This document shows, in pieces, positions 1 to 38,992 of a stretch of DNA of 39,646 nt (position 1 is its first letter; every line of letters begins with the position of its first letter). The DNA is taken from the IMG/VR virus record IMGVR_UViG_3300011827_000030, positions 1 through 39,646 of that record; one strand, 5' to 3'. Both the position numbers and the translations under genes were made by a program. This stretch comes from a virus (lineage: Duplodnaviria > Heunggongvirae > Uroviricota > Caudoviricetes). A model generated the notes under the pieces. It saw only the letters and a program-made list of their open reading frames with translations, was not told the DNA's origin and made no database searches.

Positions 1-1053
1 TTACGGGGTAATGCCAACCGCTGCCGCCACTTTGTCGCCACTTGGCAGCGTTGCCAGAGGATTGAAACGGAGCGCCGTTTCCAGATGATCCGGTGCCAGA
101 TGTGCGTAACGCATAGTCATTTTTATATCGTGGTGTCCGAGAATTTTTTGTAAGGCCAGAATGTTTCCACCCGACATCATGAAGTGCGCCGCAAACGTAT
201 GGCGCAGAACGTGTGTGAGTTGACCGCGAGGGAGCACGATAGACGTTTTTTCCATCACTGATAAAAATTGAAAATAGCAGTCTGTGAAGAAATTGAACCC
301 ATCAAGCGCCATGATCTCTTCGTAAAGCTCTTTACTGATAGGGATGCTTCTGTTTTTCTTCCCCTTCGTTCTGACAAAGGTAATTCGGTATTTGGTCACC
401 TGTGAGCGAGTAAGATTTACGGCTTCACGCCAGCGTGCGCCTGTGCTTAAGCATATCTTAACTACCAGTGCCAGAATTGGGTCCTGACGTTTGCAATCAG
501 CCAGCAATTCAACAATCTGCTCATGGGTAAGCCATGCCATCTCTTTTTCTGCGATGGTGAATTTTCGCATGTTCTCCAGTGGGTTCGGATACGACCATTC
601 GCCCAGACGGGATAGTTCGCTAAAAACACTACTTAGATAGCTTTGCTCCAGGTTAATGGTGACCGGGCTTGCTCCTTTCTTCCATTTCTCGCTGAAGTAG
701 ATCTCGCCTGTCAGGCGTTTATCTCGATAGTGGGCAAACATTTTAGAGGTGAGATCGGTTGCAAGAGGATTGCCCAGAGCGTCAACCATCAACAGCAATT
801 TGTCATAGACATGCTGCCCAGCTGTCAGAGATTTACCATGTAGTTTGAACCATAGTTCAACCACGTCTTTCAGTGTTCGACGATCCACTGATTCACCCAG
901 CCAGGGCTTTGCTTCGGTTTCTTCCATCGTGTGACGCTCAAAAGCCAGAGCTTCGCCTTTGGTGGCGAATTGTTTACGCACACGACGTCCACTACGTCCG
1001 GCGGGGTAACATTCGCAAAGCCATTTTCCTGTGGTGAGTTTTCGTACTGCCAT
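1..1053 (-). CDS. int: Tyrosine-type site-specific integrase (P2/186 Int-like)
   Basis: 350-aa ORF; the C-terminal region (HVLRHTFAAHFMMSGGNILALQKILGHHDIKMTMRYAHL) shows the R..HxxR..Y catalytic signature of tyrosine recombinases; sits at the prophage end next to the att repeat. Confidence 0.9.
   Translation of the reverse strand: MAVRKLTTGKWLCECYPAGRSGRRVRKQFATKGEALAFERHTMEETEAKPWLGESVDRRTLKDVVELWFKLHGKSLTAGQHVYDKLLLMVDALGNPLATDLTSKMFAHYRDKRLTGEIYFSEKWKKGASPVTINLEQSYLSSVFSELSRLGEWSYPNPLENMRKFTIAEKEMAWLTHEQIVELLADCKRQDPILALVVKICLSTGARWREAVNLTRSQVTKYRITFVRTKGKKNRSIPISKELYEEIMALDGFNFFTDCYFQFLSVMEKTSIVLPRGQLTHVLRHTFAAHFMMSGGNILALQKILGHHDIKMTMRYAHLAPDHLETALRFNPLATLPSGDKVAAAVGITP
19..41. other. 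attL: Putative attL core (left copy of direct repeat CGCTGCCGCCA-Y-TTTGTCGCCA), lying inside the 3' end of int
   Basis: Sequence cgctgccgccactttgtcgccac at 19-41 recurs with one internal mismatch at 36821-36843, immediately after the ogr stop. Confidence 0.6.
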
Positions 1054-1078
1054 AAAAAAGCCCTCATATCAGAGGGCT
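1054..1078 (-). terminator. Hairpin GCCCTC-atatca-GAGGGC followed, on the minus strand, by a U6 tract; the 3' arm GAGGG also looks like the int ribosome-binding site
   Basis: Plus strand 1054-1078 aaaaaagccctcatatcagagggc; the minus-strand transcript reads GCCCUCUGAUAUGAGGGCUUUUUUAUG, ending at the int start codon (1053). Confidence 0.5.
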
Positions 1079-1136
1079 AAATTTAACTGTATATACAACC
1101 AGTAATCAATGTGTGATTACTATGAAACATACATTG

Positions 1137-2813
1137 CTAAGCAACATGCAGTTCATCGTTGGCGGAAGTTGCTGCTTTGCGCTCTTGCTCAATCGCCAGT
1201 GACTCTCTATATTCTTTCGCTTCCGCAAACATTGTCCATTGTGCGTTGATGTTCATATCTTCAATAACAGACTTAATTTCTTTAATATTTACGTTGAAAA
1301 ACTCTTTTCGTGAGTTAATTTTATTGACCTGTTTTTCGTTGAAGACTTTATGCAGATGATTTTCTAATGATGGTGCATCATCACTATAAATCATCGCATG
1401 AACATCGAACGAAAAAGGAACACTAGCATCACCGAGTTCACGAACACGATCAAGTGGTTCAAGGCGGCGTGTCATTCCAATTTTATATACATCTTCGCCA
1501 AATGAGCCAATATTACTAATTATATAAACGTGGCCTGATCTAGTTTGTTGAGCCATAGAAATAGCTCGTTGGTTTTTAGCTTCAGCTTCTTCATATTTTA
1601 ACTGTAGTTCAGCTATTTTTTGCTCTAAAGCTAAGCGTTGTTCTTCATTTGCAAGCATAAGCTCTTTTGTTGCTTTATTTATAGCTTGCTGAATAGCTTT
1701 CTCTTCTTTTTCAGCTTCTTTTATCGCTTTTTCATACTCCCTACGAGCTCTTTCCTCTTCACGAAGTTGTTCTTTAATCCTTCTTTGCTCTTCTTTTTCT
1801 TCGAGCATAATTTCATTAACTGCAACTCCCCATTTTAGCTCGTTGAGTCGAGCTTGAAGATAGATGTCACTTATTTTTGCGGACCTAAAGGCAGAACCAT
1901 TGTAATTTACAAGTTGAAACGCATCTTTTATCTCTTGGGAAAGTTTTCCAAAATTGTTGTGTTTGACTTTTGATAAAATACTGTCAACTCTTCCATTGAA
2001 GGCATCTAAAACAAAGTTGATAGCAGTATTACGCCTGTTTTGTTCAACATAATCACACGAAGCAGCTTTATTAGTTTTTATTAATAATTTTGTTAACTCC
2101 CTGGCTTTTTGTAATTCCTTACCTGCATCTGTAAACTCATAATTTTCTGCCAATTCATCGAGAACGCTACGGTTAGGGATGATCCATTCATCACCATAAC
2201 CTTCAATTTTATTTTTCATTGATTTGGCAACTGCTTCATATTTTTCTGCAAACTCTTTAGCTTCATATGCTGAACCAGCAATCTCTTTTGCTCTTTCTTC
2301 TGCATCGGAAATAATTTTCACTGCATTGTCATTAGCATTTGAGATCAGCTCATTTGCTTTACTATTGGCATTATCAAGACGTTCTTTAGCTTTCAGGCGT
2401 GCATCGCGAGCGTCTTTAGTAATTGCTATAGCTTCGCTATTAGCGTTGCTTATTTTTATCTGAGCTTGATAATTTGCTTCGTTTACTGTCTTAGCAGCCT
2501 TTATTTGGGCTTCTTCTATTTTTTGCCTGGCTATTGAGTCTGCATTTTTTATCTTATTCTCTGCTTCCATCACTGCGCTGTGCAATTCTACGTATTGCCA
2601 TAATGGCGCAGCTCGTCCTTCAAGCTCTGATAGATCTCGTACAGTCTGTGCTAATTCTTCTTGATTTTCTTTCAGTTGGTTGGAAAGGGCTATGTTGTTA
2701 GCTGTCAAGGTATTTATAGCCGCTTTATGTTTTTTGCTTTGCTTAAATAATATTACAGCTAGAATGGGGGCGAGAAATGCTAATAAGAATATAACGATGG
2801 AAAATGAATTCAT
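1137..2813 (-). CDS. Cargo protein: N-terminal transmembrane helix, long coiled coil, C-terminal T5orf172 (GIY-YIG-like) domain; candidate defence or lysogenic-conversion gene
   Basis: 558 aa; hydrophobic N-terminus SFSIVIFLLAFLAPILAVILF; K/E/A/Q-rich heptad-like stretches; C-terminal GHVYIISNIGSFGEDVYKIGMTRRLEPLDRVRELGDASVPFSFDVHAMIYSDDAPSLENHLHKVF...EFFNV matches the recalled T5orf172/DUF4041 pattern; gene is AT-rich relative to the phage backbone; RBS AAGGA precedes the ATG. Confidence 0.75.
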   Translation of the reverse strand: MNSFSIVIFLLAFLAPILAVILFKQSKKHKAAINTLTANNIALSNQLKENQEELAQTVRDLSELEGRAAPLWQYVELHSAVMEAENKIKNADSIARQKIEEAQIKAAKTVNEANYQAQIKISNANSEAIAITKDARDARLKAKERLDNANSKANELISNANDNAVKIISDAEERAKEIAGSAYEAKEFAEKYEAVAKSMKNKIEGYGDEWIIPNRSVLDELAENYEFTDAGKELQKARELTKLLIKTNKAASCDYVEQNRRNTAINFVLDAFNGRVDSILSKVKHNNFGKLSQEIKDAFQLVNYNGSAFRSAKISDIYLQARLNELKWGVAVNEIMLEEKEEQRRIKEQLREEERARREYEKAIKEAEKEEKAIQQAINKATKELMLANEEQRLALEQKIAELQLKYEEAEAKNQRAISMAQQTRSGHVYIISNIGSFGEDVYKIGMTRRLEPLDRVRELGDASVPFSFDVHAMIYSDDAPSLENHLHKVFNEKQVNKINSRKEFFNVNIKEIKSVIEDMNINAQWTMFAEAKEYRESLAIEQERKAATSANDELHVA

Positions 2814-2833
2814 TTTTAAATCCTTTTACTATA

Positions 2834-3430
2834 TTAATTTGAAACTATTGTACTTCTTATACAAGCAACTACTTCAATATCAGAAAATGCACATTCAAAG
2901 CTATTCTCTGTACTTGTAATTTTAATCATACCTTTTGGAAGCTTTGTGATTTTTCGAATGGAATAGGTTCCGTCGATGTTGATTAACCAGTGCCCATCAA
3001 GTACTTCAGAAAATTTTTGATCACAAATGTATGTGACGAGCCCATCCTGAATAACAATTGGTGATGAAAGATTTGCAGGAAGAAATGATGAATCGAAGAC
3101 ATATGAACCATCTTCAATCATTTTGCCTGCGGTAAGGCGAAACTTGGCAAGCTCTTCTGTAGCTGCTGTCAGCGAGCTTTGCTTAAGGCCTTGCCCGGTG
3201 GTTAACCATTTCAGTGAGGTTCCTGTTTCAAGAGCACATTGGATTATCCAGTCTGCAGGAAACGTATCCCGCAAATACCTGTTCGCCAGAGTGCTTTTTG
3301 ATACTTCCAAGTGATCAGCTAAAGCCTGTCGTGTCGTAAAGCCATAAGCTTCGACTAATCGCTCAATCGCAGCCTTACCACCTTTATTGGGATTTATTTT
3401 GATCTCATTTGGGTACTTTGATGTTGACAT
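2834..3430 (-). CDS. cI: 186-type CI immunity repressor (CI-like HTH N-terminal domain)
   Basis: 198 aa; N-terminal ...STLANRYLRDTFPADWIIQCALETGTSLKWLTTGQG resembles the phage CI repressor HTH family; divergent from apl/cII across a promoter region. Confidence 0.8.
   Translation of the reverse strand: MSTSKYPNEIKINPNKGGKAAIERLVEAYGFTTRQALADHLEVSKSTLANRYLRDTFPADWIIQCALETGTSLKWLTTGQGLKQSSLTAATEELAKFRLTAGKMIEDGSYVFDSSFLPANLSSPIVIQDGLVTYICDQKFSEVLDGHWLINIDGTYSIRKITKLPKGMIKITSTENSFECAFSDIEVVACIRSTIVSN
3406..3418. repeat. Direct repeat CATTTGGGTACTT, copy 1 (candidate operator / Apl or CI binding site)
   Basis: Exact 13-mer repeated at 3465-3477 in the cI/apl switch region. Confidence 0.5.
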
Positions 3431-3452
3431 ATCTCTTTTGCGATCCTAGTAT
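3424..3452 (+). promoter_or_regulatory. Candidate early rightward promoter (pR-like): -35 TTGACA, 17-nt spacer, -10 TAGTAT
   Basis: TTGACA at 3424-3429 and TAGTAT at 3447-3452 with a 17-nt spacer, about 75 nt upstream of apl; overlaps the cI start codon. Confidence 0.55.
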
Positions 3453-3464
3453 CAATTTTGTCCC

Positions 3465-3477
3465 CATTTGGGTACTT
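3465..3477. repeat. Direct repeat CATTTGGGTACTT, copy 2
   Basis: Identical to 3406-3418. Confidence 0.5.
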
Positions 3478-3525
3478 GTCACGATTACTACAGGCTCACC
3501 ACAAGCCAATAGGAGATGTTGCATC

Positions 3526-3747
3526 ATGACCCCTAACATTTCAATAACTCTGAATACGCCACATGTCACAATTGAGCGTTATAGCGAACTTACTGGTCTT
3601 TCTATCGACACCATCAACGATATGCTGGCTGATGGTCGCATCCCTCGCCATCGCCTTCGGAAAGACAAGAAAAGAGAAAAGGTAATGATCAACCTTGCTG
3701 CTCTTACCGTTGATGCACTTACTGATTGCAATGTTGTATTCAACTAG
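3526..3747 (+). CDS. apl: Apl/Cox-type excisionase and transcriptional regulator
   Basis: 73-aa product [10 protein letters not shown]...; RBS AGGAGA at 3511-3516; first gene of the rightward early operon, divergent from cI as in phage 186. Confidence 0.7.
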
Positions 3748-3779
3748 TTCCATTTTGGGATACATCAGGGGTGTCGACT

Positions 3780-4289
3780 ATGTTTGATTACCAAGTTTCC
3801 AAACATCCACATTTTGACGAAGCCTGTCGTGCATTCGCACTGCGCCACAACCTGGTGCAACTGGCAGAACGTGCAGGCATGAATGTACAGATTCTGCGGA
3901 ACAAGCTGAACCCAGCTCAACCTCATTTATTAACCGCACCAGAAATCTGGTTGCTTACCGATCTGACTGAAGATTCAACGCTGGTAGATGGCTTTCTGGC
4001 ACAGATTCACTGCCTGCCATGTGTACCGATTAATGAGGTGGCAAAAGAGAAACTGCCGCATTATGTCATGAGTGCAACCGCAGAGATCGGGCGTGTTGCT
4101 GCAGGTGCGGTATCCGGCGATGTAAAAACCAGTGCAGGTCGTCGTGATGCTATCAGCAGCATTAACTCTGTAACACGGCTGATGGCGCTGGCCGCTGTTT
4201 CATTGCAGGCCCGTTTACAGGCTAATCCTGCGATGGCGAGTGCAGTTGATACCGTTACTGGCCTCGGTGCTTCATTCGGTTTGCTGTGA
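3780..4289 (+). CDS. cII: CII-like lysogeny establishment regulator (186 CII-like)
   Basis: 169-aa product starting [24 protein letters not shown]..., close to my recollection of 186 CII (same length, similar N-terminus). Confidence 0.8.
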
Positions 4290-5330: not shown

Positions 5331-6184
5331 GCACCATCTTGAAATGGGCGGGAAATAAAACCGCCGTAATGTCCGAACTGAAAAAACATCTTCCTGCTGG
5401 TCCGCGACTAGTTGAACCTTTCGCGGGTTCCTGTGCTGTGATGATGGAGACGGATTATCCCTGCTATCTGGTTGCGGATATTAATCCTGATTTAATCAAC
5501 CTCTATAAAAAGGTTGCCGCTGATTGTGAATCGTTTATATCTCGCGCCAAAGTTTTATTTGAGATCGCAAACAGGGAGGTGGCTTATTACAACATAAGGC
5601 AGGAGTTTAATTACTCAACTGAAATTACTGATTTCATGAAAGCGGTATATTTCCTGTATCTCAATCGTCACGGTTACCGTGGGTTATGTCGCTATAACAA
5701 GAGCGGGCATTTCAACATTCCCTACGGTAATTATAAAAATCCGTATTTCCCTGAAAAAGAAATTCGCGCTTTTGCAGAAAAAGCCCAGCGAGCAACGTTT
5801 ATCTGCGCCAGCTTTGATGAAACGCTGGCGATGTTGAAGGCGGGGGATGTGGTGTATTGCGATCCGCCTTATGACGGTACGTTTTCCGGCTATCACGCTG
5901 ACGGCTTTACTGAAGATGACCAGTATCACCTGGCATCCGTTCTTGAACATCGGTCATCAGAAGGACATCCGGTCATTGTTTCTAACAGTGACACATCCCT
6001 GATCCGTTCGCTGTATCGCAATTTTACTCACCACTATATCAAGGTAAAACGCAGCATCGGCGTAGCAGCTGGTGAGAGTAAATCAGCAACAGAAATCATT
6101 GCTGTTTCCGGGCCGCGCTGCTGGGTGGGATTTGATTATTCGCGTGGCGTGGATAGTTCTGCCGTGTACGGAGTACGTGCATGA
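5327..6184 (+). CDS. dam: DNA adenine methyltransferase (Dam-like, GATC-type N6-adenine methyltransferase)
   Basis: N-terminal LKWAGNK and PFAGS motifs plus DPPY catalytic motif ([14 protein letters not shown]); RBS GGAGG; ATGA overlap with the upstream gene. Confidence 0.85.
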
Positions 6185-8595
6185 GCCATGCCGATATGAG
6201 CAACTGCTGCGGCTTTAACGAGGCTGCCGCATCGTTCTCATGGAACAGCCCGAAAAAGGCCATTAACCCTTATCTGGACCCGGCGGAAGTTGCGCCGGTT
6301 TCTGCGCTTTCAAACCTGATCACTCTGTACGCTGCCGATAACGAGCAGGAACAACTGCGCCGCGAGGCACTGAGTGATCAGGTCTGGGAGCGTTATTTCT
6401 TTAATGAATCCCGTGATCCTGTCCAACGCGAAATAGAGCAGGATAAGCTCATTAGCCGGGCAAAGTTGGCGCATGAGCAGCAGCGTTTTAACCCGGACAT
6501 GGTCATTCTGGCAGACGTCAGCGCCCAGCCCTCCCATATCAGCAAGCCGCTGATGCAACGTATTGAATACTTCAGCAGCCTGGGCAGGCCAAAGGCTTAT
6601 TCCCGCTATTTACGTGAGACGATTAAGCCATGTCTGGAACGACTGGAGCATGTACGCGACAGCCAGCTATCTGCATCTTTTCGTTTTATGGCAAGCCATG
6701 TAGGGCTGGACGGCCTGCTGATTCTGCCTGAAATGAGTCAGGATCAGGTGAAACGCCTGTCTACCCTTGTCGCTGCGCATATGAGCATGTGCCTTGATGC
6801 AGCTTGTGGTGATTTGTATGCCACCGATGACGTTAAGCCAGAAGAAATCCGCAAGACATGGGAAAAGGTGGCAGCGGAAACCCTGCGTCTGGATGTCATC
6901 CCGCCTGCGTTTGAGCAACTCCGTCGGAAAAGAAACCGCCGTAAACCCGTGCCCTATGAACTCATTCCGGGTTCGCTGGCGCGTATGTTGTGCGCCGACT
7001 GGTGGTACCGGAAATTATGGAAAATGCGTTGCGAATGGCGGGAAGAGCAGTTGCGTGCTGTCTGCCTGGTCAGCAAAAAAGCATCTCCCTATGTCAGCTA
7101 TGAAGCCGTGATGCATAAACGTGAGCAGCGCCGCAAGTCACTGGAGTTTTTCCGTTCTCATGAACTGGTGAACGAAGAGGGCGACACGCTGGATATGGAA
7201 GACGTGGTAAACGCCAGCAGCAGCAACCCGGCGCACCGCCGCAATGAGATGATGGCCTGTGTTAAAGGTCTGGAGCTTATCGCGGAAATGCGCGGTGACT
7301 GCGCCGTTTTCTACACCATTACCTGTCCGTCACGTTTCCATTCCACGCTCAATAACGGCAGACCAAACCCAACCTGGACAAATGCGACGGTAAGACAAAG
7401 CAGCGATTATCTGGTCGGCATGTTTGCTGCATTTCGTAAGGCGATGCACAAAGCCGGGTTGCGCTGGTATGGCGTGCGGGTGGCTGAGCCGCATCATGAC
7501 GGTACAGTTCACTGGCACCTGTTGTGTTTCATGCGCAAAAAAGACCGCCGCGCCATTACTGCATTGTTGCGTAAGTTTGCCATCCGTGAAGACCGCGAGG
7601 AACTGGGTAATAACACTGGTCCACGCTTTAAATCTGAGCTGATAAACCCGCGCAAAGGAACGCCGACAAGCTACATCGCGAAATACATCAGTAAGAACAT
7701 TGACGGGCGTGGTCTGGCTGGCGAGATCAGCAAGGAAACGGGTAAATCCCTGCGTGATAACGCTGAATACGTTAATGCCTGGGCGTCTCTGCATCGTGTT
7801 CAGCAATTCCGCTTCTTTGGTATTCCGGGACGTCAGGCTTACCGTGAACTTCGCTTGCTGGCTGGTCAGGCGGCAAGGCAACAGAGTGACAAAAAAGCAG
7901 GTGCGCCGGTACTGGATAACCCGCGTCTTGATGCCATTCTGGCTGCTGCTGATGCTGGTTGTTTTGCCACCTACATCATGAAGCAGGGCGGCGTACTGGT
8001 TCCCCGCAAATATCACCTCATCAGAACCGCTTATGAAATCAACGAAGAGCCAACCGCCTATGGCGATCACGGTATTCGTATTTATGGCATCTGGTCACCC
8101 ATTGCAGAGGGCAAGATCTGCACTCATGCAGTGAAGTGGAAAATGGTTCGTAAGGCCGTTGACGTTCAGGAGGCGGCAGCCGACCAGGGCGCTTGCGCCC
8201 CTTGGACTCGTGGCAATAACTATCCCCTTGCTGAAAATTTGAACCAACAGGAGAAAGATAAATCAGCTGATGGGGACACCAGAACGGACATTACCCGCAT
8301 GGATGACAAGGAGTTGCACGATTACTTGCACAGTATGAGCAAAAAAGAGCGCCGGGAACTGGCTGCAAGGTTACGCCTGGTTAAACCGAAACGGCGTAAA
8401 GACTACAAACAGCGAATTACAGACCATCAGCGACTGCAGCTCGTCTATGAGCTGAAGTCCAGAGGATTTGATGGTAGCGAGAAAGAGGTCGATTTACTCC
8501 TTCGCGGCGGCAGTATTCCGTCAGGAGCAGGCCTGCGTATCTTCTATCGGAACCAGCGTTTGCAGGAAGATGATAAGTGGCGGAACCTGTATTAA
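6181..8595 (+). CDS. A: Replication initiation protein A (rolling-circle nicking endonuclease, P2 gpA-like)
   Basis: 804 aa; HUH-type motif (GTVHWHLL) and active-site tyrosine motif ([14 protein letters not shown]) typical of P2 A; conserved position after the early genes. Confidence 0.9.
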
Positions 8596-8747: not shown

Positions 8748-8936
8748 ATGCAGGACTATTTTTTGGAGTCTTTGAAGCTCCAGCGCATTGATTTTTTTCT
8801 TAAGCTTGTAGCGGCTAGTGAGTGTAGTGATGAAGAGAAGGGGCTGGCTCTGCAGTGGGTTTCTGAACTGACAGATGAACTCATGGCAAAAATCAGAACC
8901 CACGAATACAACCGCTCAATGGATGTCATCAGCTGA
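8748..8936 (+). CDS. Small SOS-box-associated protein (possibly Tum-like antirepressor; unverified)
   Basis: 62-aa ORF with RBS AGGAGG immediately upstream, directly downstream of the LexA box; functional call is by analogy to the 186 SOS-controlled antirepressor, not by recognised sequence. Confidence 0.45.
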   Translation: MQDYFLESLKLQRIDFFLKLVAASECSDEEKGLALQWVSELTDELMAKIRTHEYNRSMDVIS

Positions 8937-8946
8937 GGTGACTTTT

Positions 8947-9180
8947 ATGCGCATTGAAATAATGATCGATAAAGAGCAGAAGATTAGCCAGTCTACACTG
9001 GACGCCCTTGAATCCGAGCTTTACCGCAATCTGCGCCCCCTGTATCCCAAAACGGTAATCCGTATCCGTAAAGGTAGCTCTAACGGTGTGGAACTGACCG
9101 GACTGCAACCGGACGAAGAAAGAAAACAAGTGATGAAAATTATGCAGAAGGTGTGGGAAGACGACAGCTGGCTGCATTAA
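8947..9180 (+). CDS. dinI: DinI-family protein
   Basis: 77 aa, MRIEIMIDKEQKISQSTLDALESELYRNLRPLYPKTVIRIRKGSSNGVELTGL...VWEDDSWL aligns by eye with E. coli DinI. Confidence 0.85.
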   Translation: MRIEIMIDKEQKISQSTLDALESELYRNLRPLYPKTVIRIRKGSSNGVELTGLQPDEERKQVMKIMQKVWEDDSWLH

Positions 9181-9624
9181 GAAATGTTGCCCCCAGGAGG
9201 ATTCATTCTAATGGGGGCTAGTTTGGGCAACGAGTGAAACGAGGCGTAAGGTGGGTAATCATTTTGATAAGTGATCGCCCACTTTGTGCCAAAAGCGGAC
9301 ATCGCAGATATGACAATATGTTAGTCAACCGCGATTAGATCAGTCAGTTGGAGATGGGGGGAAGTTACAAAAACTTGTCGTCCGCCATCTCCGACTACGG
9401 GTATTCTTAACTGTACATGCTCTTTCAATCGATGATTTTTGAGTAAGTGACTAACCTATTGTTTTGATAGTAATTAAACGTATAAACGTGCGGAGTTAAT
9501 TTGAAAGTTATGTGTCTATGTTTGACAAGCAAAATTTTAAAGATTGGTTTTATCCACAGGTAATTTATGCTATTAATAGCCTCAAGCCCTGTAATTATTT
9601 TTATTTAAATGGATAAATTTGAAA

Positions 9625-11745
9625 ATGAGTACATATCATAATGATCAGCCAATACTAGGTGGTCAAAATGACCCCGATTTATTAAACAGGCTCGATTTTG
9701 CAAATCACTTGGCAAATATTCTACTATTAAATCACAATGATGATTGCCTTACTGTATCTATAGAGGCAGAGTGGGGATATGGTAAAACGTCAGTGATAAA
9801 TCTTATAAAAGGTGCTTTGAATGAAAAGGAGTTCTTACCAATAATAATAGAATATAATCCATGGCTGGCCGGTCAACCTGAATCCTTGATTCAGGATTTT
9901 TTATTACAGTTCTCTTCACAACTAAATATTAAAGACAATTCAAAAGCTGCTTTGGAAGCTTCAAAAGAATTAATTGCATACTCCAATCTCTTCAGTGTAG
10001 CAAAACTTATTCCAGGGACAGAACCTTGGGCATCTATCATAGAAAAAGTCCTCTCTAATTTTGGGAGTGCTACTAAAAAGATTGCTGAATTAAAAAAACT
10101 GGATCTTTTAGGTAGAAAAAAACAAGTAGAGAAGGCAATAAAAAAAATAAAAAATCCTATTGTGGTAATAATTGATGATTTTGATCGATTGACTCCTACA
10201 GAAACTTTTCAAGTTTTACGATTGGTTAAAGCAGTTGCAGATTTCTCAGGAACTTCTTTTTTACTTGCATTTGATCCTAATTATTTGATTTCTGTGCTTG
10301 ATAAAAATAATATCGTCAATTCTTCGGAGTATCTTAATAAAATTGTTCAACTTCGAGTCCCACTTCCTGTAATCTCAGAAAGGGGTATGAATGAACTTGC
10401 AAATGCAGAACTGGAAAAGATAGCTAATAAATCTTTAACTGACAGATTCGAAAGTGATCAAGAAAGACTAAGCTGGATTTATCATAATTATTTTAAAAAA
10501 CTAATTAAGAATCCGAGAGAGTTAAAAAGATTTTTTAACCATTTGAGATTCGTTTTAGAGCAAATTGAAGGGCAGGTATGTTTTTCTGATCTCTTTGCTT
10601 TATCTCTGGTTGCCACTAAATCGAGTTTGGTATACGAGCATATTAAAAGCACACCAGAGGCATATATAGGGAAGAGATTCACTAATGATGGCCTTTTGAT
10701 GGATAAACCTCAAGATATTGTGGATAGATTTAGTGATGAGCGAAATAAGAAACTGAGTAATTTTTCTGATCAAGAGCGTTCAGTGATGCAGGAACTCTTA
10801 GGAGATATTTTCCCACTTCTACAGTCAAGCGGGTATTCTCATTATGGGGTTTCTGATCCCGATACAGCAGGAAGGGTTTCTGCACCACAAAGGCTTCATA
10901 TTGCGTTTCATTATAAAACTCCAGCAGGGTATATTTCTGATCATGATATTATCAGTTTCATTAATGGAGATGTTAAAAGAAACGAATTTCTAAGAGATGT
11001 GCTCTCGCAAAATGCAGAAGAAAGATTTTTTGAAATGATGAATAATTATTCGAGTTATTGTAAGGATAATAGTTTTGAAATATTAACGTGTATTTATGAT
11101 ACTTTTCTGTTTTCTCAAGAATTGAAATCCTCATTGGAAAGAAACTATGGTTTTTTGACAAAAGATCTTTATAGAAGGATGAATTGGCTCACTAATAAGG
11201 TAATATCTGAAAGTGATGATAAATATGGGTTAATAAAGGGGGTTGTAGGTAGGCATGAGAATGCGCCACTTGGTGCAGACGTATTATGCCAAGCTCGTAA
11301 ACAGATTCAAAATGGATGGAATGACAAAATATGGGTTAGTATTGAAGAATTGGCTGAACTTGAAGGTATCTTTCAACAGGTGGCTATTAAAGTTTTAAGT
11401 GATAAAATATATTTTGATTATCATCTTGAATCTCATATATTTTTCGAATTAAAGAGAGTTTCATCTCAATTTACATCAGAGTTTATTGCTTCTGTATTAT
11501 CAAGTGATGGCCTGATTAGGATGTGTGAGATTATTGGTGAAACAGGTAGTGATTCAACAAATGGCCCTTTTTTTAAGTTTGATGAAATTTACTTCGGGGA
11601 AATACTTGATGTGAATGAACTTCGAAATAAAGCGAAAAATTTAGATTTTTCAATTTATCCCACACGCATTCAAGCTGTACTTAAGAGTATTCTGGATGGA
11701 CAAAAATATTATTTGAGAGATGCAACTGTTGGTGAAGATTGGTAA
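9625..11745 (+). CDS. KAP-family P-loop NTPase (cargo, candidate defence gene)
   Basis: 706 aa from ATG 9625; Walker A EAEWGYGKTS (9766-9792) and Walker B hhhhDDFDR (IVVIIDDFDRLTPTE) with a long helical C-terminal region, the KAP NTPase signature; gene is AT-rich; no obvious TM helices. Confidence 0.8.
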   Translation: MSTYHNDQPILGGQNDPDLLNRLDFANHLANILLLNHNDDCLTVSIEAEWGYGKTSVINLIKGALNEKEFLPIIIEYNPWLAGQPESLIQDFLLQFSSQLNIKDNSKAALEASKELIAYSNLFSVAKLIPGTEPWASIIEKVLSNFGSATKKIAELKKLDLLGRKKQVEKAIKKIKNPIVVIIDDFDRLTPTETFQVLRLVKAVADFSGTSFLLAFDPNYLISVLDKNNIVNSSEYLNKIVQLRVPLPVISERGMNELANAELEKIANKSLTDRFESDQERLSWIYHNYFKKLIKNPRELKRFFNHLRFVLEQIEGQVCFSDLFALSLVATKSSLVYEHIKSTPEAYIGKRFTNDGLLMDKPQDIVDRFSDERNKKLSNFSDQERSVMQELLGDIFPLLQSSGYSHYGVSDPDTAGRVSAPQRLHIAFHYKTPAGYISDHDIISFINGDVKRNEFLRDVLSQNAEERFFEMMNNYSSYCKDNSFEILTCIYDTFLFSQELKSSLERNYGFLTKDLYRRMNWLTNKVISESDDKYGLIKGVVGRHENAPLGADVLCQARKQIQNGWNDKIWVSIEELAELEGIFQQVAIKVLSDKIYFDYHLESHIFFELKRVSSQFTSEFIASVLSSDGLIRMCEIIGETGSDSTNGPFFKFDEIYFGEILDVNELRNKAKNLDFSIYPTRIQAVLKSILDGQKYYLRDATVGEDW

Positions 11746-12341: not shown

Positions 12342-14678
12342 ATGATTGAAGAGGTAGTTATTGACAAGGTAGGCTCATATAATGGCCCTACGCAGCTTTT
12401 ACATGGACTTTCTAAATTTAACTATTTATATGGAGCTAATGGTGCAGGTAAAACAACTATAAGTAAAATTATTAATGACCCTGAACAATATCCAACATGT
12501 CCGATTAAATGGAAAAATAATATATCTTTAATAAGCTACGTATATAATAAAGATTTTGTTGAAAGAAATTTTAGTCAAGATAAAATTAAAGGTGTATTTA
12601 CCCTTGGTAGCGATCTTAAGGAGGATGAAGAGAAACTAATATCTCTTAAAGAAGAAAAAAATAAGCTAATGGAATCTATTATAGCAAAGGAAAAGTTAAT
12701 AGATGGTGGTGATAATGAATTAGGCGTTATTAAAAAAATCGAAGACCATGAAAAATCTTTTAAAGATTCATGTTGGAAGCAAAAAGTAAAACATGACAAT
12801 GTGTTCTCAAAGGCTTTTGAGGGATTAAGGAATAGTAGTGAAAAATTTAAAGCCAGAGTGTTGGCTGAGTATGAAAATAATACATCAGAAGTTTGCTCAA
12901 TAGCAGAGTTAATTGAGAAAGCAAAAATTGTTTTTTCTACTGAATTGACATCACATGTATCAATTACAATTCCATCCTTCAATGGGATAGATGATATTTT
13001 GAGTAGGGAAGTTTGGAGTGAGCGCATCCTAGGGAAAAAAGACGTTAGTGTTTCAGACTTAATTACAATGCTCAATAACAGTGATTGGGTTAAGGAGGGT
13101 TTAACATATTTCAGTAAATCTAATCCCAAGTGCCCATTCTGCCAGCAGGATGTAAATGATAATATATTTGATAATCTTTCATCATATTTTGATAAAACAT
13201 ATGAGTTAAAAAAAAGAGAAATCGATGCATTGGTTTTACAATATGAATATCAACTTAATAATATCTTGAAGGCGATAGATGATATAAGGGCGATTAAATC
13301 TCCATTCATAAATTATGAAGTGTTTGAGGATAAGGCTAAGATAGTATTATCTGAATTAAACAAGAATTTTGAATTGGCAAAAAATAAACGCAATTTTTTA
13401 AGTGAATCAGTTCATTTTAGTGACTTAAGTGAAGTTGTTGATGATTTTATTTCTTTTTTGAATGATTCAAATCTATTGATAGATAATAATAACAAAATAC
13501 ATAGTAATAGAAAGGTAGAGGCTAGTAATCTTTCTAAGCAGATATGGGCATATATCGTAAAGGTGGAGTTAAAGTCTGAAATAACTTCTTACCGTAGCAA
13601 ATCTGATAAATTTAATAGGACGTTACAAGGACTTAAATCTGGGATAGAAGAAGACAAAAAGAAGTTAATGTTAAATACTTCGGCTATTGAGGCAATTGAG
13701 TCTAATAAAACCAGTACTCTTCCAACTATTACAAAAATTAACAAGATTCTGGACTCTTATGGCTTCAAAAATTTTTACTTAAAACCCTCCGAAGATAAAA
13801 AGCATTATATGATAGTGAGAGATAGTGGAGATAATGCTCGTACAACCCTTAGTGAGGGAGAAAAGACATTTATCACTTTTTTGTACTTTTATAGCCTTGT
13901 TAGAGGGAGTGATAATGCATCAGGTGTTTTAGATGATCGTGTTGTAGTATTTGATGATCCAATTTCAAGTTTAGATAGTGATATTCTGTTTATTGTAAGT
14001 TCGTTGATTAAAGATTTAATGGAGGATGTTCGTAAGGATGAAGGAAATATTAAGCAAATTATATTCCTTACTCATAATATTTATTTTCATAAAGAGTTGA
14101 CTTTTAATACCAAAAGATCCGGTAATCAAGCAATGAAAGAGGAGACTTTTTGGATTGTAAGGAAAAAAGGGAAGGTTTCATATCTTGAAAAGTGCGAATC
14201 AAACCCAATAAAAACGTCTTATGATTTGCTCTGGTGCGAATTGAGAAGAACAGACATTAATAATAATACTATACAAAATACAATGCGAAGGATTTTGGAG
14301 AATTACTTTAAGATATTAGGTGGGATGGATATTAGGAAGCTTGAGTGTCATTTTTATGGTGATGAAAAAATCATATTTAAATCTTTAGTGTCATGGATTA
14401 ATGATGGTTCCCATTTTGCAGGTGATGATCTTTATATGAATTTAGATACGGAGTCTGTGCAAAAATATTTAATTGTTTTTCAGAAGATATTTGAATGTAG
14501 TGAGCATACTGCCCATTACAAAATGATGATGGGTGAGTTTTATAAACCGTTAAATGAGTCACTTCATCTACAAGATGAGTTTGATATAGATGATAGTGCG
14601 AATGATGAGTATGCTTCGTCAAAAATTGAGATAAAAGATGGAATAAACACATCTCTACATAGCAACACATATTTGTAA
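12342..14678 (+). CDS. RloC-like ABC/SMC-type ATPase with coiled-coil insert, CxxC zinc hook and PrrC-like C-terminal putative nuclease (cargo, candidate defence gene)
   Basis: 778 aa; Walker A GANGAGKTT (12432-12458); CPFC at 13131-13142 near the middle of the predicted coiled coil; signature-like LSEGEKT, Walker B VVVFDDP, H-loop FLTHN; C-terminal region contains RRILE and IRKLECH (14334-14351); RBS AGAGG; AT-rich. Confidence 0.75.
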   Translation: MIEEVVIDKVGSYNGPTQLLHGLSKFNYLYGANGAGKTTISKIINDPEQYPTCPIKWKNNISLISYVYNKDFVERNFSQDKIKGVFTLGSDLKEDEEKLISLKEEKNKLMESIIAKEKLIDGGDNELGVIKKIEDHEKSFKDSCWKQKVKHDNVFSKAFEGLRNSSEKFKARVLAEYENNTSEVCSIAELIEKAKIVFSTELTSHVSITIPSFNGIDDILSREVWSERILGKKDVSVSDLITMLNNSDWVKEGLTYFSKSNPKCPFCQQDVNDNIFDNLSSYFDKTYELKKREIDALVLQYEYQLNNILKAIDDIRAIKSPFINYEVFEDKAKIVLSELNKNFELAKNKRNFLSESVHFSDLSEVVDDFISFLNDSNLLIDNNNKIHSNRKVEASNLSKQIWAYIVKVELKSEITSYRSKSDKFNRTLQGLKSGIEEDKKKLMLNTSAIEAIESNKTSTLPTITKINKILDSYGFKNFYLKPSEDKKHYMIVRDSGDNARTTLSEGEKTFITFLYFYSLVRGSDNASGVLDDRVVVFDDPISSLDSDILFIVSSLIKDLMEDVRKDEGNIKQIIFLTHNIYFHKELTFNTKRSGNQAMKEETFWIVRKKGKVSYLEKCESNPIKTSYDLLWCELRRTDINNNTIQNTMRRILENYFKILGGMDIRKLECHFYGDEKIIFKSLVSWINDGSHFAGDDLYMNLDTESVQKYLIVFQKIFECSEHTAHYKMMMGEFYKPLNESLHLQDEFDIDDSANDEYASSKIEIKDGINTSLHSNTYL

Positions 14679-14727: not shown

Positions 14728-15759
14728 TTAGTTAAGCTCATATGGAGAAAATTCTATAAGTTTTTCCCCGAGCCATGCATTAATTTCTCTAAATCGTTTT
14801 TGCAAAGGAATTAATTCATTTATCACAAAAACCTTACTAGCCTTCTCCACATCCCCAAACCCCCCGACATTATTAGGCATAATCCCCATCATTTGCGGTG
14901 GAACGCGGTGTGCCGCCATCATGTCATCGCGACTAACATTTTTGATATTCAGAAACTCATCCTTCGCTGCGACTTCTGATAACGGGATAATCTGAAGCCC
15001 GTCCTTTTTGCCGTTAGGTGAGTACATAAACAGGTTGCGGAAGTTGCCCGGCCCTTTGGCGCTTTTCATCGCATTGCGGAGGTTGTTCACATCCTCCTGG
15101 TTTTGCGCGGCATCGGTCATATACATGATGAAGCCTGCATGGCTGCCGTTGATGTAATACTTGCGGCGGAACAGCGTGGCGGACTCGTTGAGCAAAGCGG
15201 ATGGGATGGCAGAAAGATAACCGGGCAGGCCGTAGATCTCCTGGTTGATGTCCGGTTCCATCAGATGAAAGATGCTGCCTTTCGTGAACTGATACGGCTG
15301 TGTTGTCATACCGTATTGCACAAACCAGTAGGTTTCCAGGTCTAACCCGCGTCGGGTGTATTTTGCCAGGGCCGGTTCAAGGGCGATAACTTCACCGAAG
15401 CGGTTCGTGCGTTTCTCCAGGTAGGCGTTACCAAATACCAGATAGTCCTGCACAAAACGTGAAAAAGCCTGCTGGCTGAGCAGCGGGTGAGGGATGTAGG
15501 TACTGGTCAGAATGTTGCATTTTACTGCAATCGGGGAGCTGTGATGCACGGCAGCGCGGAAGGTGCGTGCCAGTCCGTCAAAACTTACGGGTGGCTCATA
15601 CCAGCGATCCGTCTGTACGCATTCCACATAGTCCAGCAGTTCGCGGCGGTCCAGTACAGGAATGGGATCACCAAAGCTGAAAGCTTCGGCTGAAGTTTGA
15701 TTTTTATGCTGGCTCTGTTTCGTCGCCGCAGCGCGGTTTTTCTTACTCTTTCCCATCAA
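14728..15759 (-). CDS. Q: Portal protein (P2 gpQ-like)
   Basis: 343 aa, length and position as P2 Q; leftward, overlapping the terminase gene by 4 nt. Confidence 0.85.
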   Translation of the reverse strand: MMGKSKKNRAAATKQSQHKNQTSAEAFSFGDPIPVLDRRELLDYVECVQTDRWYEPPVSFDGLARTFRAAVHHSSPIAVKCNILTSTYIPHPLLSQQAFSRFVQDYLVFGNAYLEKRTNRFGEVIALEPALAKYTRRGLDLETYWFVQYGMTTQPYQFTKGSIFHLMEPDINQEIYGLPGYLSAIPSALLNESATLFRRKYYINGSHAGFIMYMTDAAQNQEDVNNLRNAMKSAKGPGNFRNLFMYSPNGKKDGLQIIPLSEVAAKDEFLNIKNVSRDDMMAAHRVPPQMMGIMPNNVGGFGDVEKASKVFVINELIPLQKRFREINAWLGEKLIEFSPYELN

Positions 15760-23118: not shown

Positions 23119-24870
23119 CTATTGGTTGAATATAAAGCTGATAATATTTTCAGGAGTGAGCTCTATGTTTTTTTTATTAAGTTTTTGAATGTACATTTTA
23201 TATTTCATTTCAACGTTTCGGAAGCCTTGCGCAACAGAAAGTATTTCTACAGGATGAGATGAAAGCTTTATTAAGGAGTTAATGACTGCATCTAGGTAGA
23301 TGTGAGCATGTTCAACTAAAACATTTGTTTTTGATGGGGTTTTTCCAGTGTGAACTATCAAGTTTCTAGTTCTATATATTCTCCTAATTTGCCAGTTGAT
23401 TCTTTCTGCATGATTTTTAAGTGCCTGATACATAGTATCAGTTGAGGAAATTAAATTGCTAATATATTCAAATCTCTCTTTCAATAACGGAAATTGTGAG
23501 AGTTCTATCTTAAACTGATTGATGCTAGGGGCATGTTCTTGCGAAGCAACAAGAATTACAAATGATTTGGCTGCATCGCTATCTCCAATTAGTCTTAGAA
23601 GTGACATGGTTCGAGGATGATTCCATCGTTGTAAGTCTTTTATAAGATTCCTTACTAGGTCTTCAATATAATTCAGGTTTAAAAATGGTGTTAATGAATT
23701 AACGATATGTTCTATCGTGGATTGTTCTTCTTTTTTTGATTCGTCGGGGATGAGTGATTCAATAGCAATCCATAAATTTAAAAGCTGATTTTCTACAGCA
23801 TTTGTCTGTAGTGCCATTGAATGTAATTGTACACTTCTTATGAATTTATTGAAAGAATCCTTGCGCATTCTGAAATTATTCATGAATTGTTCGAGTCTTC
23901 TGCTTGCGTGTTCCTGAACCAGATCCTTGCAGCGGTGCATTGGGTTTATGCTGCTTCTTATATTGATTTTTTCACCATTTTCACTAACTACAATGTTCTC
24001 TGCAGACCATGATGCTTCTTGCTTATGATGATAGAGAGAAAGCAAAGTTGATGCGAGCTTTAAGTTTCTTTCAGCTACCCTTCTAGCCGTGAATGGATCA
24101 AGTGCTTTAACATGCTTAACTAAAATAGTTCGTTGTTCATGATTATCGAAGAAATCTGTTTCATTAATATTTTCGGGGGTTTCAAGAACAACCTCAATTT
24201 CTAATTGTGATAAGCATGGAGTAATATAACTAAAAGATTTGTCAGCATTGAAATAAACTGAATATTCTTGTGTCTCTGAGGGGATGTTCTCTAGGAATGT
24301 AATAATCTCTTCATTTGAACTGATCTCTCGTTCTCTTTGGAAGAAATGTTTTTTTAGACTTTCCATCAAATATTCTTGACTTAATCCTTTTGATATTAGG
24401 TGGGTAATCAACAGTCTTGTAAACTTTCGAATTTTATTTGGGTTGTATTCTGAAGTTATTGTAGAGCAAAGTTCACTGATGAGTTTGCTTTCATAATTAT
24501 CAACATTAAGTTGAACTCTCAGTAATTCAAGAGTTATTTTTAGATTTTTATTTCCTAACTGATTGTTTTGGAGTTGATCTAAAAATGAACCTAAAGGGTT
24601 TTTTAGAAGACTGATTGCGATGTCATCATTCTTAATATTTTTAGTTAATTCGTCAATGACGTGGGATATATGTGCGGGGCTTATGTTGCCTTTTTCTATA
24701 TCATCGATTGTTGATATTGCTTCTATACATAAACTTGGAGTGTTCATTATAGAAGGTTTATATGTACTATGGGTGTAATCAAAGAGAAGTTCCTCCATTA
24801 ACTCGGTGAAATAAATAAGCGCAGTGCATTGTTCAATATGATTCCAGTTGTGTAGTCTTCTAAATTTCAT
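23119..24870 (-). CDS. Cargo protein with C-terminal HEPN-like RNxxxH motif (candidate abortive-infection RNase), inserted between S and V
   Basis: 583 aa from ATG 24870 (RBS AAGG upstream; the listed ORF extends to a TTG at 24990); motif IRRIYRTRNLIVHTG encoded at 23350-23373; opposite strand to flanking tail genes; AT-rich. Confidence 0.7.
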   Translation of the reverse strand: MKFRRLHNWNHIEQCTALIYFTELMEELLFDYTHSTYKPSIMNTPSLCIEAISTIDDIEKGNISPAHISHVIDELTKNIKNDDIAISLLKNPLGSFLDQLQNNQLGNKNLKITLELLRVQLNVDNYESKLISELCSTITSEYNPNKIRKFTRLLITHLISKGLSQEYLMESLKKHFFQREREISSNEEIITFLENIPSETQEYSVYFNADKSFSYITPCLSQLEIEVVLETPENINETDFFDNHEQRTILVKHVKALDPFTARRVAERNLKLASTLLSLYHHKQEASWSAENIVVSENGEKINIRSSINPMHRCKDLVQEHASRRLEQFMNNFRMRKDSFNKFIRSVQLHSMALQTNAVENQLLNLWIAIESLIPDESKKEEQSTIEHIVNSLTPFLNLNYIEDLVRNLIKDLQRWNHPRTMSLLRLIGDSDAAKSFVILVASQEHAPSINQFKIELSQFPLLKERFEYISNLISSTDTMYQALKNHAERINWQIRRIYRTRNLIVHTGKTPSKTNVLVEHAHIYLDAVINSLIKLSSHPVEILSVAQGFRNVEMKYKMYIQKLNKKNIELTPENIISFIFNQ

Positions 24871-24914
24871 ATTAATACCTTGTTTTGTGAAGCTTGAATT
24901 TACCTTTAGCGCAT

Positions 24915-24932
24915 TGTTTGTTGCTTCATACA
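24915..24932. promoter_or_regulatory. Late-activator (Ogr) site TGT-N12-ACA upstream of V
   Basis: TGTttgttgcttcatACA, part of the longer palindrome tgtttgttgcttcatacaaaca, in the 108-bp gap between the cargo gene start and V. Confidence 0.5.
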
Positions 24933-24978
24933 AACATGGTTTGTTTGTGATCTCAAGTGTTTGATTAAGAATTTGAGA

Positions 24979-25557
24979 ATGAACGTACAACTCACGGAAA
25001 TCATGCGCCTTATCACCAATCTGATCCGCACAGGGGTAGTCACCGAAGTGGACCGGGAAAACTGGCTTTGCAGGGTGAAAACGGGCGAGCTTGAAACCAA
25101 CTGGATCAGCTGGCTGACGCTACGTGCCGGAAATGCCCGGACATGGTGGCGACCATCGGAAGGTGAGCAGGTGGTGCTGCTGAGTCTGGGCGGCAATCTG
25201 GAAACAGCCTTTGCGCTGCCCGCCATCTATTCGAATCAGTTTGCACCGCCGTCGACGTCGGCGGACGCCTGCGTGACAGAACATCCTGACGGTGGCTGGT
25301 TTGAATATGAACCCGCCACCGGGCGCTGGTATGTCAGGGGCATCAAATCAATGGTCATTGAGGCCGCTGATAACATCACCATGAAAACCAGTGAGTTTGT
25401 ACTGGAGGCTGACCGCACGCGCATTAACAGCGAAGTGGTGATCAATGGTGGCGTTACCCAGGGCGGCGGAGCGATGAGTTCTAACGGGATTGTGGTTGAT
25501 GCACATCAGCATACTGGCGTCCTGAAAGGCGGCGACACAACCGGAGGCCCGGTATGA
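24979..25557 (+). CDS. V: Baseplate spike / assembly protein (P2 gpV-like)
   Basis: Contains IRTGVVTEVD...WWRPSEGEQVVLLSLGGNLETAFALPAIYS, resembling P2 V as recalled; start ambiguous between ATG 24979 and ATG 25003. Confidence 0.8.
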   Translation: MNVQLTEIMRLITNLIRTGVVTEVDRENWLCRVKTGELETNWISWLTLRAGNARTWWRPSEGEQVVLLSLGGNLETAFALPAIYSNQFAPPSTSADACVTEHPDGGWFEYEPATGRWYVRGIKSMVIEAADNITMKTSEFVLEADRTRINSEVVINGGVTQGGGAMSSNGIVVDAHQHTGVLKGGDTTGGPV

Positions 25558-38726: not shown

Positions 38727-38992
38727 GAAAGCCAACTTCTCATTTACTAGTAAGTTGTTGAAGGAAATGGTTATTTGGTCTAAGGTTGCTCAGGCGTTCG
38801 CGTTGTCGCGAACCTATTCTGGCACCCTGTTATAACCAGCAAAAATATACCGCTAGTTTAATCCTTCCTGGATGCGGCGGCTAGTGACAATCGTTTTTAG
38901 GCTGGTAGGGGAGTTATTGGCATGGATTGCCGAAATGCTTTATCTGACTGGGCGACGTGGACGTGAGTTAGAGGCAACATCAGGAGGATACG

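Follow-up and report, generated by a model that had tools for sequence, protein, structure and literature searches.

A gene between cI and int of a P2/186-like prophage that very probably encodes a SNIPE-family anti-phage nuclease

Why should a temperate phage carry a gene for a membrane-anchored, nuclease-like protein between its repressor and integrase genes, and what would such a protein do? The question was raised by a gene for a 558-amino acid (aa) protein in the IMG/VR virus record IMGVR_UViG_3300011827_000030 (Caudoviricetes), of which positions 1 to 39,646 were analyzed; this whole stretch of 39,646 nucleotides (nt) is referred to below as the window. An earlier interpretation, made without database searches and called here the sequence-only reading, had described a coiled-coil protein with a single N-terminal transmembrane (TM) helix and a C-terminal T5orf172 domain, and had proposed that it is superinfection-exclusion or defence cargo of the lysogenic operon. 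Our analysis indicates that the 558-aa protein very probably belongs to the SNIPE (PD-lambda-1) family of anti-phage nucleases and that a P2/186-like prophage carries its gene as an accessory part of the lysogenic operon.

The 558-residue protein and the SNIPE family

PD-lambda-1 was recovered in 2022 from E. coli ECOR26 by functional selection against lambda-vir (Vassallo et al., PMC9519451); it is a 500-aa protein encoded by 1503 nt (RCP76574.1), with DUF4041 at positions 197-252 and T5orf172 at 357-448 (PMC9519451). It has since been renamed SNIPE and characterized (Saxton et al. 2026, Nature, PMC13190303), and the recent RefSeq annotation of some copies of the gene studied here is "SNIPE associated domain-containing protein". 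The combination of a membrane anchor with a nuclease-like domain, which the sequence-only reading regarded as unusual, is therefore an established one. A literature search for DUF4041 together with T5orf172 returned no paper.

The 558-aa protein matched the PADLOC PD-Lambda-1 model PDLC03976 with E=1e-119 (398.6 bits; aa 114-550 against positions 35-481 of the 491 in the model) and PDLC03977 with E=4.8e-116; in PHROGs it matched phrog_1847, a family of unknown function. The Pfam search that the sequence-only reading had proposed found both expected domains above their cut-offs, DUF4041 (PF13250) at aa 267-322 (46.6 bits, cut-off 27) and T5orf172 at aa 427-520 (61.8 bits, cut-off 20), together with MUG113 at aa 443-520 (70.7 bits, also above its cut-off). 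The motifs quoted in that reading are present as well, GHVYII starting at residue 427, YKIGMT at 443, RRLEP at 449 and KEFFNV at 503.

Conservation was analyzed in an alignment of 74 homologues that are 32-85% identical to the protein. The GIY-YIG motif set is complete (V429-Y430-I431, Y443-K-I-G446, R449/R450, E484 and N497), and its residues are invariant or at least 90% conserved. Invariant positions were Y430, G436, G439, G446, T448, E459, F469, E484, N497 and F506, and R449 and R450 were each at least 90% conserved. Mean identity to the residue found in the window was 64% in the nuclease, 49% in DUF4041 (aa 265-330), 48% in the linker helix and 17% in the N-terminal stalk. The same order of conservation, with the nuclease above DUF4041 and DUF4041 above the N-terminal region, was described for the SNIPE family (PMC13190303).

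As a reference-type SNIPE we used a 500-aa DUF4041 protein from a lambdoid prophage of E. coli 730V1 (L003:4984-6486), which has the same length as PD-lambda-1 and contains every residue discussed in the SNIPE paper (E223, N250, L253, W257, E264 and E414). BLASTP aligned aa 265-555 of our protein with aa 196-487 of this reference at 49% identity (E=2e-76), covering DUF4041, the linker and the nuclease. Both proteins are encoded by single genes carried in prophages, match the same PADLOC model and have the same order of TM helix, helical stalk, DUF4041, long helix and GIY-YIG/T5orf172 domain, and the catalytic Glu is kept (E414 in SNIPE, E484 here). The differences are that the window protein is 58 aa longer overall, that its domains are shifted by about 70 aa and that it has Lys (K327) at the position of W257 and Ser (S292) at that of E223. 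In addition, BLASTP found no alignment of its first 264 residues to SNIPE aa 1-195, although the match to the PADLOC profile starts as early as aa 114. The genomic positions also differ, as the window gene lies between cI and int of a P2/186-like myovirus prophage, whereas the reference-type copy is flanked by the nin region and ren/P of a lambdoid prophage.

The single N-terminal TM helix that had been proposed is well supported by hydropathy. The segment at aa 4-23 is the sole hydrophobic one (Kyte-Doolittle 19-residue mean of 2.99, with no other 19-residue stretch above 1.6). Since it is preceded by MNS alone and followed by KQSKKHK, the positive-inside rule predicts an N-out/C-in topology, which would place DUF4041 and the nuclease in the cytoplasm. 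The long K/E/A-rich helical stretches were also confirmed, oligomerization apart, by composition (19% Ala, 12% Glu and 11% Lys in aa 26-200; 24% Glu, 15% Ala and 12% Lys in aa 331-425) and by an AlphaFold2 model. The stalk is A/E/K/N-rich and contains three NAN-containing motifs. The model, built from an alignment of 74 diverse homologues, had a mean predicted local distance difference test score (pLDDT) of 82.8 and showed helices at aa 2-179 and 181-204, a globular helical domain at about 216-314, helices at 316-387 and 390-425 and an alpha/beta domain at 427-526; pLDDT was 85-95 over aa 221-340 and 53-59 over aa 201-220. An AlphaFold2 run with 25 close homologues (81-97% identical) was discarded, as its mean pLDDT was 53 and the globular domains were unresolved. 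Foldseek with the elongated model gave local, non-significant matches to GIY-YIG Slx1 proteins, nothing else relevant was found in the structure-library searches, and a sequence search of the PDB detected no relative. Overall, the full predicted SNIPE architecture is present in the 558-aa protein with the catalytic residues intact.

Relatives are numerous. Among 1.84 billion cluster representatives scanned, 1405 matched at E<=1e-30 and 3392 at E<=1e-3, and a hydrophobic segment was present within the first 90 residues in 106 of 124 full-length diverse homologues; an N-terminal membrane anchor was reported for about two thirds of family members (PMC13190303). Of 5426 complete E. coli genomes, 165 contain the gene at >=80% coverage, and among the other genera with homologues of 81-85% identity are Citrobacter, Salmonella, Klebsiella and Enterobacter. 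The 558-aa form is common in enterobacterial P2/186-like prophages. In two GenBank phage records, those of Klebsiella phage KP12 and Escherichia phage vB_EcoM-813R9, it carries the label "chromosome segregation ATPase". We rejected this annotation because no ATPase family was found in Pfam and the score for the NCBIfam model SMC_prok_A was 15.5 bits, far from its cut-off of 729.

Predicted mode of action and alternative explanations

The mechanism of SNIPE itself is known in some detail. PhoA and LacZ fusions showed a single-pass inner-membrane protein with its N-terminus outside and its bulk in the cytoplasm, and defence was abolished by E414A or by deletion of DUF4041 (PMC13190303). SNIPE fragments 32P-labelled lambda DNA on entry and leaves adsorption and prophage induction unaffected; DNA is cut only during injection, so that defence is direct and cells survive at high multiplicity of infection (PMC13190303). 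Its partners are ManYZ and tape measure proteins, the latter identified by crosslinking. DUF4041 binds the tape measure protein as well as DNA (for which it alone suffices), W257R strengthens tape-measure binding, and the N-terminal region is thought to be a specificity adaptor (PMC13190303). The range of SNIPE comprises siphoviruses, and no BASEL myovirus or podovirus was affected (PMC13190303).

By analogy, anchoring in the inner membrane would keep the nuclease of the 558-aa protein off the host chromosome. During genome injection by a competing phage, which is most likely a siphovirus, the stalk and DUF4041 would contact both the DNA and the entry machinery, the latter through the tape measure protein, an inner-membrane entry protein or both. 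The nuclease would then cut the entering DNA, and the infected lysogen would survive. The resident prophage, a myovirus already inside the cell, would not be exposed. Since SNIPE spares myoviruses and resident prophages, a P2-like carrier should therefore not harm itself. The 558-aa protein may have a docking partner and a phage range other than the ManYZ/lambda specificity of SNIPE, because its N-terminal 264 aa could not be aligned to SNIPE by BLASTP. Specifically, an N-terminal adaptor that is about 70 aa longer, together with Lys at the position of W257, may direct the protein to another inner-membrane route or another class of tape measure protein.

Several points weigh against this assignment. 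The anti-phage activity of the 558-aa protein is itself predicted from a characterized homologue, to which the 49% identity is confined to the C-terminal 293 aa, and the ManYZ-associating N-terminal region of SNIPE has no BLASTP-detectable counterpart here. In addition, the predicted topology is based on hydropathy and the positive-inside rule only, and the proposed co-transcription with cI (see below) on spacing and the absence of predicted signals.

Other explanations have to be weighed against the same data. It is conceivable that the protein is an abortive-infection toxin, in which the anchor restrains a non-specific nuclease that is released or activated by infection, so that host and phage DNA are degraded and the cell dies. 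SNIPE without its TM helix is indeed highly toxic, binding and cutting the chromosome (PMC13190303). Abi-type genes are found as neighbours in the same genomic slot (AbiU and a PifA-like protein), and the divergent N-terminal region could alter regulation. However, the direct, non-suicidal defence by characterized SNIPE and the conservation of its architecture and catalytic residues in the 558-aa protein make this explanation improbable. We consider it still less probable that the protein acts by non-catalytic superinfection exclusion, plugging or misdirecting a DNA-entry channel, including that used by P2/186-like phages, with a nuclease-like domain that only binds DNA. Such a function would suit a gene in an immunity operon, where sie-type genes also occur, and T5orf172 was first annotated as a DNA-binding domain, just as DUF4041 of SNIPE binds DNA on its own. 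Nevertheless, invariance or near-invariance of Y430, R449/R450, E484 and N497 across distant homologues points to selection on catalysis, and both the loss of defence in SNIPE E414A and the absence of an effect of SNIPE on myoviruses argue against simple exclusion.

The remaining alternatives, a selfish element resembling GIY-YIG homing endonucleases or a structural coiled-coil protein of chromosome segregation, appear very remote. T5orf172 domains do occur in mobile endonucleases, but a homing element is hard to reconcile with a membrane anchor and with a constant location in a slot of unrelated defence genes. A role in segregation is suggested by the annotation in phage records mentioned above and by sub-threshold NCBIfam matches to DivIVA/Wag31, SMC and V-ATPase subunit E; yet these scored 15-24 bits against cut-offs of 260-729 and were set aside as an effect of coiled-coil composition, and no family of ATPases or P-loop proteins scored above a threshold.

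A SNIPE-family nuclease thus remains by far the best explanation, and comparison with other systems is consistent with it. PDC-S57 (E=3.3e-20, aa 424-546) and other stand-alone T5orf172/MUG113 proteins of the GIY-YIG clan share the nuclease domain, but models of the PDC-S57 type cover the nuclease only, without the defining SNIPE features of TM helix, stalk and DUF4041. Zorya, Kiwa and sie-type genes resemble SNIPE in acting at the inner membrane at genome injection, and Sie genes are also expressed from prophages (PMC13190303). However, Zorya and Kiwa each consist of several proteins and respond to perturbation of the envelope, classical Sie proteins lack nuclease activity, and no sequence relationship of the 558-aa protein to Zorya, Kiwa or Sie proteins was found.

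The conceptual addition made by this gene is small, as the family was already discovered, named, included in defence databases and explained mechanistically, and the copy described here is a diverged member. It does show that the lysogenic operon of a P2/186-like prophage common in enterobacteria includes a SNIPE-type gene, and it corrects a misleading annotation in phage records. It also offers a natural diverged variant with which to examine whether phage specificity is set, as has been proposed, by the N-terminal region.

The slot between cI and int

The intact 558-aa open reading frame (ORF), cI and int are co-oriented on the minus strand at the left end of the window (Table 1). The spacer between the cI stop codon (2834-2836) and the ORF ATG (2811-2813) is exactly 20 nt, in agreement with the orientation and distance given by the sequence-only reading. 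It contains the Shine-Dalgarno (SD) sequence of the SNIPE-type gene, and no promoter-like or terminator-like site was found in it in a scan of positions 900-3800. We infer that cI and the SNIPE-type gene are co-transcribed from the pL-like promoter, and hence that the protein would be produced constitutively in lysogens. The pL-like and pR-like sites lie face to face, which resembles the arrangement in phage 186. A complete P2/186-like myovirus prophage, with gpA, portal and tape measure genes among others, makes up the remainder of the window. Complete E. coli genomes carry the same locus at an integration site next to rcdA/ybjJ, and the loci of E. coli L73 and SC516 are 99.9% identical to that of the window. 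The G+C content is 36.7% in the SNIPE-type gene and 39.9% in cI, against 49.1% in the window.

To examine how related prophages are organized in this region, we collected 77 species-representative loci with relatives of the integrase and retained 46 in which a 186-type cI is co-oriented upstream of a full-length int. In 16 of them cI abuts int with a gap of 9-46 nt, as in phage 186, and the other 30 carry cargo of 0.4-3.3 kb in the slot. The SNIPE-type gene was present in 7 loci (L007, L010, L011, L012, L014, L016 and L021) and different cargo in 23. The gene is therefore accessory, and the universal presence between cI and int that the sequence-only reading had set against its own proposal was not found.

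The different cargo comprised about 27 protein clusters, many of them without any match. Among those with matches to defence models were AbiU (PADLOC E=6.5e-127), the two-gene system HEC-01 (E=2e-208 and 6.5e-74), PDC-M11A/B (E=7e-136 and 1.4e-48), PDC-M18A/B and a PDC-S20/PifA-like protein (E=3.7e-82). Because unrelated cargo, including several such matches, occupies the same place, the cI-int slot is a predicted hotspot of defence cargo, though a small one. Placement of the 558-aa gene as defence cargo in a lysogenic operon, as had been proposed, is likewise favored by its accessory status, its low G+C content, the defence genes occupying the slot elsewhere and the mechanism of its family. 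Known hotspots of the P2 family (old/tin between gpA and portal; Z/fun; "integrase-primase", PMC13586616) similarly hold defence genes at fixed variable slots. The site described here differs in lying inside the lysogenic operon, specifically between cI and int, whereas the literature defines the slot only coarsely.

In the window and in 4 of the 7 loci with a SNIPE-type gene, the gene is flanked directly by cI and int, and no obligatory partner gene was detected. The other three loci contain about 1 kb of additional DNA between the SNIPE-type gene and int. Two of them encode a 309-aa ORF on the plus strand (L010:4981-5910 and L011:4982-5911), which is also present in L074, and the third contains a different, 286-aa ORF on the opposite strand (L012:4845-5705, minus strand); neither ORF had a PADLOC match.

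The repressor itself follows the cargo. In all 7 loci with the SNIPE-type gene, cI was 81-100% identical to cI of the window, whereas identity was at most 64% in the other loci. This distribution suggests that the cI immunity allele and the SNIPE-type gene move as one immunity-plus-defence module, and the fact that both genes are AT-rich also points to such an exchange. In E. coli OkiPb01680, the SNIPE-type gene is intact, but the cI gene upstream of it (L083:2384-2980) is labelled a pseudogene that contains an internal stop; this prophage may retain the defence gene although its repressor is defective.

The int leader and other features of the window

The sequence-only reading had assigned to the SNIPE-type gene a hairpin terminator of its own. 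The hairpin and its T-run are real, with a fold z-score of -3.87 in a 101-nt stretch, but the comparison of loci gives a different view of their ownership. Terminator-like sites in positions 900-3800 numbered 5, against 2.5 +/- 1.9 in shuffled sequences, which is not significant by itself, and the evidence for the hairpin is therefore its fold z-score together with its conservation across loci, not the raw site count. Among the 30 cargo-bearing loci, 23 share a conserved stretch of about 80 nt in front of int, irrespective of the cargo (a conserved leader about 100 nt upstream of int was noted in related loci L005-L026, L048, L053 and L074). In all 23, int is at least 55% identical to that of the window, and in 22 at least 70%. 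The hairpin is retained in these loci with at least 5 different stem sequences, and the mean fold energy before int was -11.6 kcal/mol over all 30 cargo loci versus -4.0 in loci where cI abuts int. In the window, the 3' arm of the hairpin contains GAGGG, the putative SD sequence of int, and the T-run ends at the int ATG. Because it abuts the int start codon, holds an SD-like sequence and recurs with different cargo, the hairpin is, judged by this comparison, a shared element of the int leader and not the terminator of the SNIPE-type gene. A search of Rfam gave RyhB at positions 1052-1120 (minus strand) with 30 bits, below the gathering score of 55, and further small RNA and leader models (TarA, MicA, Trp/Phe leaders) at about 20 bits on the same hairpin and U-tail. 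A RyhB-like small RNA was set aside as a sub-threshold match that probably reflects a generic resemblance to terminators.

The elements of the conserved leader follow one another in the order ATGTWTG-N12/13-CAWACAT (with a non-conserved spacer), TTGAC(C)-17-TTAAAT, the SD-holding hairpin and, usually, a T-run. The inverted repeat lies 53-57 nt before the int ATG in 21 of the 23 cargo loci with the conserved leader and was absent from all 16 loci in which cI abuts int. A second copy of the repeat is located at the start of cII in nearly every related locus. In the window, the sole perfect ATGTTTG-N13-CAAACAT repeat (chance expectation of 0.01) is at 3780-3806, in the first codons of cII, where the CII operator of the 186 pE promoter lies. 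The repeat at 3780-3806 is presumably the CII operator of a pE-type establishment promoter; its link to CII is based on this position and on the 186 operator (Shearwin & Egan 2000), and no operator sequence is printed in the 186 CII paper examined.

It is possible that the int leader combines a CII-activated, pI-like int promoter with an insulator. The constitutive cI-cargo transcript would be stopped or attenuated at the hairpin just before int, which, acting as a terminator and by sequestering the SD sequence, would keep this message out of int. A CII-responsive promoter in the leader would then express int during the establishment of lysogeny once cargo separates int from pL/pE. The proposed uncoupling of int from the cI-cargo message is similar in manner to that by lambda pI. 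No mention of such an int leader was found in the literature examined. The broader proposal, that the 558-aa form is a functionally distinct SNIPE subtype moving with one cI allele and that a leader uncouples int from the cI-cargo message, is tentative, and we regard it as more doubtful than the family assignment by a wide measure.

Table 1. Features of the SNIPE-type locus in the window, with the evidence for each
Feature	Position	Strand	Basis
int, tyrosine integrase, downstream neighbour	1..1053	-	Pfam Int_N + Phage_integrase
Hairpin AGCCCTC-tgatat-GAGGGCT + T6, abutting int ATG	1054..1078	-	fold and terminator scan
Promoter-like TTGATT-17-TTAAAT	1081-1109	-	cross-locus comparison
Inverted repeat ATGTATG-N12-CACACAT, CII-operator-like	1109-1134	-	cross-locus comparison
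SNIPE / PD-lambda-1 family gene, 558 aa	1137..2813	-	ORF, ATG start, TAA stop; PADLOC, Pfam, BLASTP
Predicted GIY-YIG (T5orf172/MUG113) nuclease, aa 426-526	1236..1538	-	Pfam, conserved residues
Codon of predicted catalytic Glu E484	1362-1364	-	alignment to SNIPE E414
Long E/A/K/Q/R-rich linker helix, aa 331-425, DUF4041 to nuclease	1539..1823	-	AlphaFold2 helices, composition
Globular DUF4041 region, aa 206-330 (Pfam core 267-322)	1824..2198	-	Pfam PF13250, pLDDT
Variable N-terminal helical stalk, aa 24-205; presumed adaptor	2199..2744	-	composition, AlphaFold2 helices, 17% identity
N-terminal TM helix, aa 4-23	2745..2804	-	Kyte-Doolittle
Shine-Dalgarno AAGGA, 7 nt before SNIPE-type ATG	2821..2825	-	sequence reading
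cI, 186-type repressor	2834..3430	-	Pfam Phage_CI_repr + Phage_CI_C
pR-like promoter, opposing pL-like site	3424..3452	+	consensus scan
pL-like promoter GTGACA-16-CAAAAT, upstream of cI	3455..3482	-	consensus scan only
Divergent apl-like and cII genes	3527-3747 and 3780-4289

Additional candidates for defence genes were observed elsewhere in the window. The classical P2 hotspot between gpA (6181-8595) and portal (14728-15759) contains two of them, a 708-aa KAP-family NTPase (9619-11745, plus strand) with a match to PifA (E=6.4e-64) and a 778-aa AAA_13 protein (12342-14678, plus strand) with a match to PDC-S06 (E=1.6e-266). With the SNIPE-type gene, the prophage therefore has at least three candidate defence loci. 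A 623-aa ORF without Pfam domains (23119-24990, minus strand) is located on the opposite strand amid lysis and tail genes and showed a weak PADLOC match to ApeA (E=1.6e-12); it may be cargo of a second P2 hotspot, of the Z/fun type. A DinI-like gene directly follows gpA (8875-9180, plus strand), and an Asp-Al_Ex/TrkA_C permease gene at the right end of the window (37041-38735, minus strand) is most likely a host gene outside the prophage.

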